Below, in pieces: positions 56,293-61,758 of a stretch of 64,000 nucleotides of DNA. Source of the stretch: an uncultured Bacteroidota bacterium (lineage in GTDB: Bacteria > Bacteroidota > Bacteroidia > Chitinophagales > Chitinophagaceae); assembly GCA_903927185.1 (NCBI GenBank), contig CAIYLW010000026.1, forward strand, positions 22,759 to 86,758, given 5' to 3'. The notes under the pieces were generated by a model. The model was not told where the DNA came from. It made no database searches and saw only the letters and a program-made list of their open reading frames with translations. The position numbers and the translations under genes were made by a program. Numbering within the stretch: position 1 is the stretch's first letter; each line of letters starts with the position of its first letter.

Positions 56293-56709
56293 TTATTGAC
56301 ATTTCAAACAGGTACCACTTACTACCACATCTACCTGACTTACTAAAAATCCAACAGGTAAAGCCACTGACGGAACAGTTACATGATCTAGGCAATAGGT
56401 AGTTCCGCATTGGTCGCACATAAAATGTACATGATTGTCGTGATGATGTCCTTCGCTGCAATCATCTTTACACAATGCATATCGAACAGAATTGTCGGCT
56501 GAAGGTATTGTATGAATAATACCTTTTTCAACAAAAGTTTGAAGGGTTCTATAAATCGTCACCCTGTCAAATTCCTCTCCGCTTTGTTGTTCTATATCTG
56601 CATGTGCTAATGCTCCTTTGCGTTGTAGAAACATTTCCAGAATTTTTTTCCGGCTATCAGTAATACTTAACTGATTTCTTTTAAGTGTATCTAAGATCCT
56701 TGGATGCAT
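56293..56709 (-). CDS. Fur-family transcriptional regulator (Zur-like)
   Basis: DRVTIYRTL; HHHDNHVHFMCDQC and CLKC CxxC pairs; ATG at 56709 preferred. Confidence 0.88.
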   Translation of the reverse strand: MHPRILDTLKRNQLSITDSRKKILEMFLQRKGALAHADIEQQSGEEFDRVTIYRTLQTFVEKGIIHTIPSADNSVRYALCKDDCSEGHHHDNHVHFMCDQCGTTYCLDHVTVPSVALPVGFLVSQVDVVVSGTCLKCQ

Positions 56710-56719
56710 GCTGAAGCTA

Positions 56720-57376
56720 TTAGGGATTATTACCAAAAATACTATTTACAAAATTGCCATTTCCAGCTTTTTCTTTTAAAAGTTTACGGATATCTACTTT
56801 TATTTTCTCCAATTCATCGGCTTTTAATCCATCGTAAACCTGACCTCTTACTTTGCCATCTTTATCTACCAATGCAAAGAATTGAGTATGTATAAATTGA
56901 TCTTCAATTTTTTCAACATTATTTTTTGGGTCGTCCAATAAATAAGAACTTCTAGCCATACTATAAAGACTATCCTTACGACCTGTCAGGAATACCCATT
57001 TTTTGGTATCAACTTTTAAAGAATCAGAATAGACTTTCATTCTAGCAACAGTATCACGATTGGGGTCGCAAGTGTGAGAGATTATTAAAAAGTCTGGCTC
57101 GTTCTTAAAAGTTTCAGCGATACTTTTCATATTGGTATTCATATGCGGACAAATACCTTTACAATTTGTAAAAAAATACTCCACCACACATACTTTTCCT
57201 AACATATCTCGATCGGTAAAAGTTTTATCATCCTGGGTTTGAAAATGGAAGGGTTTCACATAACTAATCGTTGATAATTTGGTTCTCCACTCATCATTTC
57301 CTCGAAATAAAAAGAAATAGAATCCGATAAGGAGTGCAAAAAAGAAGAGTAGATAACCAATTAATTTCTTTCCCAT
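56720..57376 (-). CDS. SCO1/SenC-family copper chaperone
   Basis: N-terminal TM; FFTNCKGICP (CxxxC), WVFLTG, FIHT. Confidence 0.92.
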   Translation of the reverse strand: MGKKLIGYLLFFFALLIGFYFFLFRGNDEWRTKLSTISYVKPFHFQTQDDKTFTDRDMLGKVCVVEYFFTNCKGICPHMNTNMKSIAETFKNEPDFLIISHTCDPNRDTVARMKVYSDSLKVDTKKWVFLTGRKDSLYSMARSSYLLDDPKNNVEKIEDQFIHTQFFALVDKDGKVRGQVYDGLKADELEKIKVDIRKLLKEKAGNGNFVNSIFGNNP

Positions 57377-57451: not shown

Positions 57452-57484
57452 TTTATGTATATTTGCATTATTATTATTGAATCG

Positions 57485-57871
57485 ATGAAAGTTAATTTGG
57501 ATTTTTTGGGAATTGCTACATCCTTGGCTTGTGCCATTCATTGTGCCTTATTACCCTTAGTGCTTACTAGTTTACCCATATTTGGTATCAATATTATCGA
57601 CAATTTATATTTCGAAAATATGATGGTGGGTATTGCTTTTATTGTGGGGATTCTTGCATTAAGACATGGAAAGCAAAAACATCACCATAGTTTGATGCCA
57701 ATTGTGGTCTTCAGCTTTGGGATTCTTTTATTATTTGCTAAAGTGATTTGGCATGAGTGGCAATATTGGTTCCTTTTTCCAGCAGTAAGTTTGATAGTTA
57801 CGGCACATTTACTCAACTTTGGTTTTTGCAGAATTCATAATCATGCTCATGCAGATGATTGTGATCACTAG
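57485..57871 (+). CDS. MerC-domain membrane metal transporter-like protein with His-rich tail
   Basis: [12 protein letters not shown], 4 TM, HHHS loop, C-terminal [11 protein letters not shown]. Confidence 0.82.
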
Positions 57872-59373
57872 TTAATATTATAGCTAGTTCCCCCATCTTT
57901 TTCATCCTTCAATTGAATACCTAAAACGGCCAATTCATTTCTAATTTTATCACTTGTCATAAAATCCTTATTGGATTTAGCATCCTTACGAATGCTAATC
58001 AGTAATTGAAGAACTCCATCAAGCTGGCCATTATCGGCAGACCTTTCTCCTACTAATCCAAACACGTCTTCCAAAAAGACTTTCAATTGTTTTTGAAGAA
58101 GCAACGAGGTTTTACCACTAATTGCAGTATCTAAAATATGTTTGTCTTTAATTGAATTTATTACAGATGATAATTCAAACATATTAGCCAATACTTTGGC
58201 TGTGCTGAAATCATCATTCATGAATTCATCGAATTCAGCAATTTGTTTTTGAACCTTATCATCTAGCGAATTATCAGATGCAATAGTATCTGCAGAAAAG
58301 ATTTGTTTATTAAACCATTCGTATGCTTCCCATAAACGTTTCAACGCTTTTTCTGAGGCTTGTAATGCTTCGTTACTGAAATCGAGCGTGCCTCTATAAT
58401 GACTTTGTAAAATAAAGAAGCGGATGGTCATTGGAGTATAGGCTTGTTCTAAAATGGGACTATTTCCACTGAATAATTCAGTTAGTTTAATCACATTATT
58501 ATAACTCTTACCCATTTTTTTACCTTGAATAGTAATCATGTTATTATGCAACCAATAGCGAGCTGGAGTTTTATGATTACATACGGTACTTTGTGCAATT
58601 TCACATTCATGGTGAGGAAATTGAAGGTCCATGCCACCGCCGTGTATATCAAACTCTTCACCTAAATATTTACTACTCATAGCCGAACATTCAATATGCC
58701 AACCCGGGAAACCCTCGCCCCATGGGCTATTCCAGCGCATAATGTGTTCTGGTGGAGCTGACTTCCAAAGTGCAAAATCGTTTTTATCTCTCTTCTCATC
58801 TTGATTATCTAACTCACGTGTAGTATCGAGTTGATCTTCTAAATTTCGCCCGCTTAGCATGCCATAGGGCTTACCCAACTTGGAGAAATCGATATTGTAT
58901 TTTGCCACATCGAAATACACGGAACCATTAGCTTCATAAGCATATCCGTCTGAAATGATTTTTTTGATCATCTCTATCTGTTCTACAATATGACCAGTTG
59001 CTGTTGGCTCAATACTTGGAGGTAAATTATTAAATCTACTCATGGCCCAATGATAGAGATTGGTATATTTTTGTACCAATTCCATAGGTTCGAGTTTTTC
59101 TAAAACAGCTTTTTTGCTAATCTTATCTTCCGCTTCGCGACCTTCTTCTTCAAAATGACCAGCGTCTGTAATATTTCGAACATAGCGTACTTTAAAACCC
59201 AGATACATCAAATAGCGATAAATCACATCAAAAGTAATGAAGGGACGGGCATGACCTAAGTGACTTTCACCACTTACTGTTGGTCCGCACACATACATAC
59301 CCACATAGGGTGCGTTAATAGGAGTAAATATTTCTTTTTGTCTGCTTAAGGAATTATAAACTTTCAAAGACAT
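57868..59373 (-). CDS. cysS: Cysteine--tRNA ligase
   Basis: [47 protein letters not shown]. Confidence 0.97.
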
Positions 59374-59435
59374 GTTATAGTACTTGTGAGATTGTGAATT
59401 GAGTTATAAGCCACTTAAATGGGCCAAATGCCTAA

Positions 59436-59483
59436 TTAATAGCAGCAACAACAACTGTAGGTATAAAAATGGCTCAAATACAT
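59436..59483 (-). CDS. Candidate cysS leader peptide MYLSHFYTYSCCCCY
   Basis: ATG TAT TTG AGC CAT TTT TAT ACC TAC AGT TGT TGT TGC TGC TAT TAA; stop 62 nt before the cysS ATG; TTATCTTG promoter-like box 6 nt upstream. Confidence 0.75.
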   Translation of the reverse strand: MYLSHFYTYSCCCCY

Positions 59484-59534
59484 GGAGCGCAAGATAAGAA
59501 AATAAAGCCGTTTCGACAGAAGGGAAGAACTGAT

Positions 59535-60647
59535 TTATTTGTTTAGCCTAAGATCAGTTACTAACATCATATGATCGCTTAAATCTTCATCCACCATATC
59601 AAATTGTTTCACTGAGAATCGATTATCTGCAAGAATATAATCGATTCGTAAGGTAGGGGCCAATGACAAATAAGTTCTGCCAATTCCAAAATCCTTTTTT
59701 AAAAAGCAATCTTGCCAATTTCCTTTGATATTAAAATAGGTATAAGAATTTGGGACATCGTTAAAGTCGCCGGTTATAATACTGGGTAAATTAGAAAGGT
59801 CTCTTTGGCTTCTAACAATATCGGCTTGAACCCCTCTTCTAGTAAAAGCGAGTTTCATTTTATTAAAAATATTTTTAGAAGCTGATACGGTTTCTTCATC
59901 TTGCTCTTTTATTTTTTCAATATCAATATAATCCTCTTTTTTAAATTTAAAGGATTGCAAATGGGTATTGAAAACGCGGACGGTATCATTGCCTTTTAAA
60001 ATGTCAGCAAAAATGAGACTTTCAGCAATAGGGAAATTAGTTTTTCCCGAATCAATAATTGGATATTTTGAAAAGATGATACTTCCGGAATGATAATTAC
60101 CATTGTTACGCAGGTAATCTCTTGAAAAAAAATAATATGGAAATGCTTTTGTAAATAAAGAAATATTATCTGCGTAATTTCTTTGGGTACTACTATTAAA
60201 TTCTTGTAAGCAAACAATATCAGCCTGCATATTTGTAATAATTTCAGCCACTTCGTTTCTTGTTAGTCTCTTAGCATCAATATTTTTGCTAAGCCCATTG
60301 AAGCTTCTTACATTCCAATCTACAATTCGAATATTCTGCGTATGCTTTTTTTTATTGAAACCAGCCCCTGCATGCCAAGCAAATACAACGCCTAATTGTT
60401 GCCAACCAAAGCAAAGAGAAATAAAAGGAATCCAGGCAATAACTGGTTTGGCAATCAGCCAAAATATAGTTGTGAAAAATAGAAGTACAATTAAGTAAGG
60501 AACAATTAATCCAGTGAATCCGAAAAACCACCAATTTGCTGGATTGATATAAGGAGAAAGACAAGCAATTACAAAAACTGCTGCCATAAAAATTGTGATC
60601 GTTAAGCTGAAAGATTTAAATGTGCGTCGCAAAAAACTTTTTGCCAT
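59535..60647 (-). CDS. Endonuclease/exonuclease/phosphatase (EEP) family protein with N-terminal TM segments
   Basis: WNVRSF, CLQEF, NTHLQS, GDFNDVP, RIDYI, SDH. Confidence 0.9.
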   Translation of the reverse strand: MAKSFLRRTFKSFSLTITIFMAAVFVIACLSPYINPANWWFFGFTGLIVPYLIVLLFFTTIFWLIAKPVIAWIPFISLCFGWQQLGVVFAWHAGAGFNKKKHTQNIRIVDWNVRSFNGLSKNIDAKRLTRNEVAEIITNMQADIVCLQEFNSSTQRNYADNISLFTKAFPYYFFSRDYLRNNGNYHSGSIIFSKYPIIDSGKTNFPIAESLIFADILKGNDTVRVFNTHLQSFKFKKEDYIDIEKIKEQDEETVSASKNIFNKMKLAFTRRGVQADIVRSQRDLSNLPSIITGDFNDVPNSYTYFNIKGNWQDCFLKKDFGIGRTYLSLAPTLRIDYILADNRFSVKQFDMVDEDLSDHMMLVTDLRLNK

Positions 60648-60672: not shown

Positions 60673-61758
60673 TTATAGCTGAATATCTGTGATAATTGGG
60701 TAATGGTCTGATAAATGAAGATGTGGAGAACTGTATTGAATCGTTTTTATATTTGGGCTGGTAAATAAGACGTCGATTCTGAGTGTAGGAGATAGACTAT
60801 CGTACGTTCTTCCAAACCCCCATCCTTTTTCAAGGAAGGCATCGTGAAGACCATTACTAACATGATGATACACGAAACTTGATGGAACAGAATTCATGTC
60901 CGCAGTATAAATAAATGGAATAGTAGAACTATCTAATGATTTTTTAATTAGTTCGGCCTGTTTTAAATGTATCTTATCAAAATATGCAAGCCTCCTTAAT
61001 TTATCTCTTTTCATTAAAATTGCTTCGTCGTATTTAACAAATTTCAGGCGATTACTATTATTGTTGTCCTTTAATTCAATATGAATACCCATCGAAAGTA
61101 AATGAGTATTATAAACTCGCAATAATTTAGAAGGAGTTTGTATCTCAACCCATTGTAAAAATTCAGGCGAATTAATATTCGAAAAAGAAATATTATTTTT
61201 CTTTAAAAAAGGCCATCTTGAAAATATAATAACACCATTATTAGGATCTGCCTCACTAAAATAACTATACTTTAATCCTGTCAATAATTTAATGTTTTCT
61301 GTTGTTGCATTAGCATGTGGATAATAGGTAGAACAGTAATCTTGAAAACATATAATATCTGCATTTGCTGATTTAATATATTCAAGCATTTGGTTTATTT
61401 TTCCTGAGTTGGAAACACTTTGGGATAAAAAATTATTTACATTCCAAGATAATATGCGAATCTGATTTTGAGATTTTGCTTGAACAAATGCTTTACTTGG
61501 ATGAAGACCATAAACCGAAATAATATTTTTATATCCAGCAAAAAGTACCAGAAAAAAAATCCAGGCAAATTTTTTAAATAAAATAAGACTAAGGATACAC
61601 CAAATCAACATAATGATTAATCCTATTGGGAAAAATAAACTAGCAAAAGAAAAAAAATAGCCATAAAATGGGCTTATATAAGGAGTTAAACAAGTAAGCA
61701 AGTAGAGGATACTTCCAGTTATACCTAAGCTTAGAACTATTTTCTTGAATAGTTTCAT
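60673..61758 (-). CDS. EEP family protein with N-terminal TM segments (paralogue)
   Basis: SWNV, CFQD, NTHL, ADMNSVP, RIDV, SDHYP. Confidence 0.88.
   Translation of the reverse strand: MKLFKKIVLSLGITGSILYLLTCLTPYISPFYGYFFSFASLFFPIGLIIMLIWCILSLILFKKFAWIFFLVLFAGYKNIISVYGLHPSKAFVQAKSQNQIRILSWNVNNFLSQSVSNSGKINQMLEYIKSANADIICFQDYCSTYYPHANATTENIKLLTGLKYSYFSEADPNNGVIIFSRWPFLKKNNISFSNINSPEFLQWVEIQTPSKLLRVYNTHLLSMGIHIELKDNNNSNRLKFVKYDEAILMKRDKLRRLAYFDKIHLKQAELIKKSLDSSTIPFIYTADMNSVPSSFVYHHVSNGLHDAFLEKGWGFGRTYDSLSPTLRIDVLFTSPNIKTIQYSSPHLHLSDHYPIITDIQL

Follow-up and report, generated by a model that had tools for sequence, protein, structure and literature searches.

A recurrent Cys-codon leader ORF in front of cysS in Chitinophagaceae, a candidate sensor of charged tRNA(Cys)

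Is the short ORF that carries a run of Cys codons just upstream of the cysteine-tRNA ligase gene a real genetic element, and, if so, how might it act on the gene behind it? We addressed this question in a 64,000-nt stretch of DNA from an uncultured member of the Chitinophagaceae (the window), in which the presumed regulated gene, cysS, lies on the minus strand at 57868..59373 (ATG at 59373). It encodes a protein of 501 aa that matches PF01406 at 1.1e-98, carries a DALR_2 domain and has homologues named cysteine-tRNA ligase. Upstream of it, on the same strand, lies a leader ORF of 15 codons plus a stop, MYLSHFYTYSCCCCY (59436..59483, ATG at 59483), with four consecutive Cys codons, TGT TGT TGC TGC (59442..59453), which are the presumed sensing codons; a spacer of 62 nt separates its stop from the cysS ATG. 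The initial annotation had given these positions together with the four Cys codons, a promoter-like box and a content of 9 C and 1 G in the last 36 nt before cysS, and all of them hold. A run of four TGY codons occurs only once in the 64 kb, on either strand (0.09 expected), and no further small ORF with a Cys run was found within the window, hence no wider regulon was seen there. An Rfam search of 59000-59900 at E-values up to 10 matched no family, which led us to reject a riboswitch or T-box reading. We favor, at roughly 55%, a ribosome-mediated leader that senses Cys-tRNA(Cys), in which stalling would raise cysS expression, most likely via less premature termination or loss of the transcript; in this proposal we infer that the uORF is translated, where transcription starts, in which direction regulation works and at which step it acts.

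The uORF recurs in relatives. We compared 160 cysS loci, 80 from species-representative genomes and 80 from metagenomes, all of them Chitinophagaceae-like with 70-92% CysS identity; most of the compared sequences are metagenome-assembled, and all relatives belong to the Chitinophagaceae apart from four Cytophagales loci. An ATG-initiated uORF with a Cys run was present just 5' of cysS in 59 of the 160 (39/80 genome and 20/80 metagenome loci), so that the Cys-codon uORFs anticipated for the cysS upstream regions of Chitinophagaceae are indeed conserved, with synonymous variation. The window's own subclade, at the loci reached via the closest CysS proteins, carried it throughout, and none of the four Cytophagales loci did (0/4). 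Cultivable carriers include Sediminibacterium roseum (L022) and Lacibacter luteus (L080); in Segetibacter aerophilus (L056) the uORF is of the variant preceded by a leader of about 22 nt. Across 51 non-redundant leaders, over which all architecture statistics were taken, the uORF had a median length of 14 codons (range 9-21) and a median of 5 Cys (range 3-8), and the spacer from its stop to the cysS ATG had a median of 67 nt (interquartile range 59.5-72.5). Ahead of the Cys run, residues varied freely between lineages (MKRISIS.., MFFLSHT.., MRYPHRYG.., MKKYFYT.. and others). The run itself stayed, with the choice between TGT (152 codons) and TGC (106 codons) drifting between leaders. Such a pattern is typical of a regulatory leader that is translated and in which the Cys codons are what matters functionally.

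These observations bear directly on whether the ORF arose by chance, or marks an untranslated (UGY)n motif in RNA or DNA. Taken over its full length, the leader shows no unusual structure, as such a reading would allow, but for every Cys run save one there was an ATG upstream in the same frame, the stop followed directly after the last Cys in 46 of the 51 leaders, the T and G of the Cys codons were invariant with only the third position varying between T and C, and the ATG kept a fixed distance of 4-7 nt from a promoter box. Moreover, runs of three or more TGY codons were 22-fold denser in the 200 nt 5' of cysS than across the rest of the fetched DNA (1.08 Mb); outside cysS leaders, Cys-codon runs were mostly antisense triplets within genes. 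Because of the recurrence in relatives, the single occurrence of the fourfold run in the window and this positional density, we regard a chance origin as extremely improbable, and the uORF is a real, conserved and unannotated element, very probably a regulatory leader ORF of cysS. The one Cys-run frame that had no upstream ATG, at locus L053, contains a degenerate Segetibacter-type uORF at about -100 to -61 relative to cysS, in which ATG has become ATA and three Cys codons are left; it retains an anti-Cys GCAG and a downstream TACCTTTG box.

Where the transcript would begin was judged from the promoter. A predicted Bacteroidota sigma-A -7 box, TATCTTGC, of the TAnnTTGY variant, occupies a conserved position at 59489..59496 on the minus strand and ends 5 nt before the uORF ATG. 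The 8-mer TTATCTTG at 59497-59490, 6 nt before the ATG, is the promoter-like box that had been pointed out initially, and it lies where it was said to lie. Counting the bare 8-mer in the window gave 5 copies against 5.6 expected, that is, chance frequency; we rejected the motif count as evidence, and the promoter call therefore rests on conserved position across loci. With the box defined as TAnnTTTG with at most one mismatch, or as TAnnTTGY, it ended 4-7 nt before the uORF ATG in 86% of the 51 leaders. In F. johnsoniae the -7 box spans -12 to -5, with the transcription start 4-5 nt after the box (PMC6847099), and the TAnnTTGY variant has been described in F. psychrophilum (PMC9723704). The same geometry would put transcription initiation in the window at 59484..59485 on the minus strand, leaving a 5' UTR of about 1-2 nt. 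A look for RNA evidence turned up DNA metagenomes and fragmentary metatranscriptome contigs of relatives, none of which spans the leader. The position of the box thus implies a nearly leaderless transcript with the uORF at its predicted 5' end, as the initial annotation had suspected; leaderless mRNAs make up only about 5% in the flavobacteria studied (PMC9723704).

Several relatives depart from this arrangement. At L036, L037, L054, L056 and L057 the upstream box lies 20-26 nt from the uORF ATG, and those uORFs are therefore leadered. A second perfect -7 box (TACCTTTG or TACTTTTG) follows just after the uORF stop in Segetibacter-like leaders, about 10-25 nt past the stop at L036, L037, L042, L054, L056, L074 and L078, and also at L098, L100, L124 and L137; the hexamer CTTTTG was found in 7 spacers, with 1.2 expected. 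This second box could be an internal, uORF-independent promoter for basal cysS expression, or merely the U-rich tail of the hairpin formed by the Cys tract.

The relatives that do without the uORF, about 60% of the family members, retain the promoter. In these the same promoter region (...aaaataaaatatctttg...) lies 5-14 nt before the cysS ATG and overlaps the stop of the upstream EEP-family gene; in L020, L021, L023, L024, L026, L040 and others, cysS itself has leaderless geometry, the box ending 5-7 nt before its ATG. Because uORF-less relatives have the same promoter directly before cysS, the uORF and its spacer appear to behave as a cassette of about 110 nt placed between an unchanged promoter and the gene. 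L008, the only negative inside a positive clade, reads TATCTTGC, 5 nt and then the cysS ATG, so that its indel places this ATG exactly where the uORF ATG normally sits, 5 nt past the box. L084 and L168 are about 90% identical on both sides of the element, with L084 lacking about 110 nt that comprise the uORF and most of the spacer. In a CysS tree, all members of one large Sediminibacterium-like clade, the window among them, had the element, all of the about 44 loci in its sister clade did without it, and presence was patchy in the rest of the family.

Such clean loss in close relatives argues against a functional Cys-rich micropeptide, either metal- or redox-active or the precursor of a modified peptide, that is merely co-transcribed with cysS. 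Its length class and its aromatic or hydrophobic residues followed by poly-Cys are conserved, and MerC, SCO1/SenC and Fur are encoded among the neighboring genes, all of which would suit a peptide of this kind; against it, the Cys run alone is conserved while the N-terminal residues vary freely, the element was found only in front of cysS, and maturation or export genes were not found nearby. We therefore consider a micropeptide function highly improbable.

The neighborhood itself is ordered as EEP-cysS-MerC-SCO1, an order conserved in relatives. Upstream of cysS, the minus strand carries a tandem pair of paralogous genes of the Exo_endo_phos family (PF03372), at 59535-60647 and 60673-61758, whose products have hydrophobic N-terminal segments. 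The stop of the proximal gene comes shortly before the promoter of the cysS leader; in relatives it overlaps the A/T-rich upstream part of this promoter. No terminator was found between the proximal gene and the cysS leader, and thus read-through transcripts, in which the uORF would be leadered, are possible. On the other side, a MerC-family ORF (57455-57871, plus strand) converges on cysS (57868-59373, minus strand) with a 4-nt overlap of the 3' ends, followed by SCO1/SenC (56720-57376) and a Fur-family regulator (56293-56736), both on the minus strand.

We then asked what the Cys codons might do as RNA. In the window, a hairpin domain at 59410..59446 on the minus strand is formed by GCUGCU (59446-59441), which corresponds to the last two Cys codons, paired with AGUGGC (59415-59410). 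Enclosed by it are the codon for Tyr, the stop and a short hairpin of its own, in which GGC (59432-59430) pairs with GCC (59424-59422). The local fold amounts to -9.7 kcal/mol, and the duplex is stronger than in shuffles at p = 0.033. Over the 51 leaders, the duplex joining the final Cys codons to the beginning of the spacer averaged -7.64 kcal/mol as compared to -5.38 kcal/mol in composition-matched shuffles (set-level z = -8.0; 0 of 400 shuffled sets reached the observed value), whereas the control arm, codons 2-6 against the spacer, gave z = -0.8 and thus no set-level complementarity. In line with this pairing, the first 30 nt of the spacers contained 14 anti-Cys pentamers of the form RCARC, with 2.0 +/- 1.5 expected. 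Typical forms of the hairpin hold the stop in the loop, as in GCUGC-UAA-GCAGC, GUUGC-UAAG-GCAAC and GUUGU-UAAU-ACAAC.

An RNAalifold consensus of the window's clade showed changes in the 3' arm alone, and these preserve the pairs (U-G to U-A, G-U to G-C). Double compensatory changes were not found in the hairpin of this clade because the 5' arm is fixed by coding, and the covariation evidence is accordingly one-sided. In one relative from this clade the inner hairpin was swapped for an unrelated one in the same place.

Folding was unevenly distributed along the leader. Compared to shuffles, the Cys tract with the first 30 nt of the spacer had more structure (mean z = -0.81, p = 7e-6), and the last 40 nt of the spacer with the first 15 nt of cysS had less (mean z = +0.71, p = 8e-11). 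The folding energy of the window's whole leader was no better than that of shuffles (z = +0.61). In the window, the unstructured and G-poor distal spacer (59374..59409, minus strand), delimited by folding against shuffles and by composition, runs into the cysS start codon. The modeled leader is thus bipartite, with a structured proximal part and an open cysS start region.

Two other pairings were considered. The initial annotation had proposed that GAGCCAUUU in codons 3-6 of the uORF pairs with AAGUGGCUU (59416-59408). This helix does occur in the minimum-free-energy structure of the window's leader, but the nearest relatives read GAGCAAU.. at this place, so that the helix is weaker or absent in them, and codons 2-6 give no set-level signal; we rejected it as a conserved element. 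Pairing of the 5' end of the uORF, including its AUG, with the spacer was likewise rejected as a general feature, being real in two clades only and reaching p<0.05 in 12% of leaders. In those clades (L064, L076, L079, L080, L134 and L141; L003 and L007) the complementarity spans 7-10 bp and involves lineage-specific elements, AUGAAGAA or AUGAAAC with a conserved spacer UUCUUCAU or GUUUCAU. According to the modeled pairing, transcription of the spacer would leave the start codon at the 5' end sequestered.

Taken as a ribosome-mediated leader, the locus could work as follows. Transcription would start 1-2 nt before the uORF AUG, and a ribosome would load at the 5' end and translate the 15 codons. 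When charged tRNA(Cys) is plentiful, it would clear the four Cys codons, terminate and leave, freeing the last Cys codons to pair with the beginning of the spacer in the hairpin around the stop codon. Under a shortage of charged tRNA(Cys), the ribosome would stall on the Cys run and cover both the arm and the stop, blocking the hairpin, and cysS expression would rise, most likely through less premature termination or loss of transcripts in the leader. The sensing step, proposed because of the leader anatomy and established attenuation biology, is the part of which we are fairly sure. Cysteine or Cys-tRNA sensing, as first suggested for this locus, is by far the best reading, the terminal Cys run being the only invariant feature and specific to cysS. 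For the output step, we give reduced premature termination about even odds. Weighing against the proposal are the missing U-tail and terminator in the window's clade, a whole-leader stability no greater than that of shuffles, the one-sided covariation of the hairpin, and the many relatives, including the four Cytophagales loci, that dispense with the element.

Evidence for a termination-type output comes from the relatives. Relaxed hairpin and U-rich-tail sites were present in 20 of the 51 leaders, as compared to 7.8 +/- 2.1 in spacer shuffles (maximum 13); in 17 of these 20 a ribosome stalled at the last Cys codons could reach the 5' arm, which often was the Cys tract itself. Many relatives would therefore carry a hairpin with a U-rich tail resembling an intrinsic terminator that is occluded by the ribosome; the leader would then be a minimal attenuator, with the ribosome itself as the antiterminator. 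No antiterminator or alternative pairing was found in the window or in the relatives with U-tails. The window's clade differs in its tail. The relaxed scan yielded no site in this clade, in which the stem is followed by UUAUAACU and no U-run, and the standard scan found no intrinsic terminator in the window's leader, both bearing out the statement of the initial annotation that a classical U-tailed terminator is missing from the window. With such a degenerate tail, termination would be weak, pause-dependent or dependent on a factor such as Rho.

A Rho-dependent output of the tna type, with the same sensor, would have the stalled ribosome block Rho loading on an unstructured spacer that has more C than G. 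Spacers averaged 24.5% C and 11.7% G at a constrained length of about 60-72 nt, their distal part is unstructured, the window's clade has no canonical terminator, and Rho was proposed earlier for terminator-less Cys-run leaders (PMC1262725). The initial annotation had relied on the C-rich, G-poor composition in the same sense, an argument that does not stand: a skew of this size or larger is seen in 28% of the window's other 5' regions, so it is within the genome's normal range. A rut-like composition that is ordinary for the genome carries no weight either way, and Rho-dependence is therefore neither supported nor excluded by it. Furthermore, an open and G-poor start region is needed anyway for translation initiation in Bacteroidota, and the hairpin of the replete state removes single-stranded RNA, with no obvious favor to Rho. 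Overall, an output of this type appears unlikely to us.

We hold the same view of a translational output with the same sensor, in which the Cys tract or its partner would occlude the cysS start and stalling would free it. This mechanism was shown experimentally for polycysteine leaderless sORFs, of the Ms5788A type (10.1101/834739), and would suit a window that has no terminator. When a stalled ribosome was imposed as a constraint, the modeled accessibility of the start rose from 0.59 to 0.63-0.64, a small but significant gain that was larger in a few lineages (L054, L056, L074). Nevertheless, the partner of the Cys tract is the neighboring spacer, at least 36 nt ahead of the cysS AUG, and not the start region, the latter is less structured than shuffles in all states, and Bacteroidota have no Shine-Dalgarno sequence to sequester (PMC6847099). 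With accessibility almost unchanged under the modeled ribosome and the region selected to be open, we rejected sequestration of the cysS start region.

That, in a phylum without Shine-Dalgarno sequences, a leaderless poly-Cys uORF controls an essential aaRS gene with neither an intrinsic terminator nor start-site sequestration, the whole sensor of about 110 nt being gained and lost as a cassette, is a tentative idea, to which we lend rather little credence. A 70S ribosome held at the 5' end might, for instance, act with the hairpin of the Cys tract to control the access of Rho, the pausing of RNA polymerase or mRNA decay that depends on the 5' end.

The favored reading, a ribosome-mediated Cys-tRNA(Cys) sensor, would make this a case, well sampled with 51 distinct leaders, in which stalled ribosomes report on amino-acid supply in Bacteroidota, a phylum in which RNA-level regulation is poorly charted, initiation proceeds without Shine-Dalgarno pairing and leaderless mRNAs are rare. 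Close relatives with or without the cassette behind the same promoter offer natural matched controls, suited to the question of how a stalled ribosome would bring about more cysS expression in a leader that has no classical terminator. For annotation, the analysis flags a conserved small ORF and a regulatory 5' leader of cysS in Sediminibacterium-like freshwater bacteria.

How does this leader compare to known systems? Classical attenuators, such as trpL, hisL and the pheST leader, hold a run of cognate codons in a short ORF, with these codons in the 5' strand of the first hairpin. The cysS leader resembles them in both the cognate-codon run and its place in the first hairpin's 5' strand; it differs from the trp and his type in that the window has no antiterminator/terminator pair and no U-tract, and in that its Cys run abuts the stop. 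The T-box, by which cysS is controlled in the Firmicutes manner, had no matching fold here in the Rfam search described above. Compared to the tna-type Rho leader, the C-over-G skew is present here but ordinary for the genome, and the distal spacer is unstructured.

Among Cys-codon leaders of cysS, a close likeness is uORFC-8-2 of Rhodobacterales, reported by Brewer et al. 2021, in which two tandem Cys codons lie in a stem followed by an intrinsic terminator, and which was interpreted as ribosome-mediated attenuation responding to Cys-tRNA(Cys) (PMC8632094). Both are cysS uORFs with consecutive Cys codons inside the first stem, the last two Cys codons forming its 5' arm here. uORFC-8-2, restricted to alpha-proteobacteria, has Cys as its codons 14-15 and continues into another stem and a U-run terminator, whereas the present element has 3-8 Cys at the C-terminus, is nearly leaderless by prediction, has no U-run in the window's clade and occurs in another phylum. 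Because there was no Rfam hit, the two evidently have independent origins, as judged from sequence comparison with a release, Rfam 15, that possibly does not include uORFC-8-2. In Deinococcus deserti, dRNA-seq revealed that the cysS mRNA starts directly with the AUG of a leader peptide of 10 aa (de Groot et al. 2014, PMC4007540); that leader has two Cys only, a Shine-Dalgarno sequence before cysS and a mapped transcription start, the start being predicted here.

Polycysteine leaders are also known in front of other genes. In actinobacterial cys operons, terminator-less leaders with Cys runs near the stop were predicted, and Rho was suggested (PMC1262725). In M. smegmatis, Ms5788A (Canestrari et al.) represents leaderless translational attenuators in which the Cys tract pairs with a downstream Shine-Dalgarno sequence (10.1101/834739). 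The mycobacterial sORFs and the element described here share a Cys run at the 3' end by the stop, a base-paired Cys tract and the absence of a classical terminator. The former are leaderless, and for the latter a leaderless start, with a 5' UTR of 1-2 nt, is predicted from box geometry. They differ in that the mycobacterial sORFs control cysteine-biosynthesis operons and pair their Cys tract with the Shine-Dalgarno region, whereas this element fronts cysS, finds its partner in the first 40 nt of the spacer and leaves the cysS start open.

For flavobacteria, leader-peptide attenuation has been noted for amino-acid biosynthesis operons, and the transcriptome supplements of F. psychrophilum list nothing for cysS (PMC9723704). 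Our literature search returned no description of a Cys-codon leader for Bacteroidota cysS, in keeping with the novelty that the initial annotation had supposed for this phylum; beyond it the supposition does not extend, as Cys-codon cysS leaders are known (PMC8632094, PMC4007540), as are polycysteine attenuators in mycobacteria. In the broad sense of leader-peptide attenuation, the locus appears to qualify, having a uORF of cognate codons whose other residues drift. It lacks the defining structures of a classical attenuator, of uORFC-8-2 with its U-run terminator and of the Ms5788A type with its start-site pairing. To summarize, this leader would work like known Cys-codon leaders and combines their features, being new for Bacteroidota and of a kind that has already been described.
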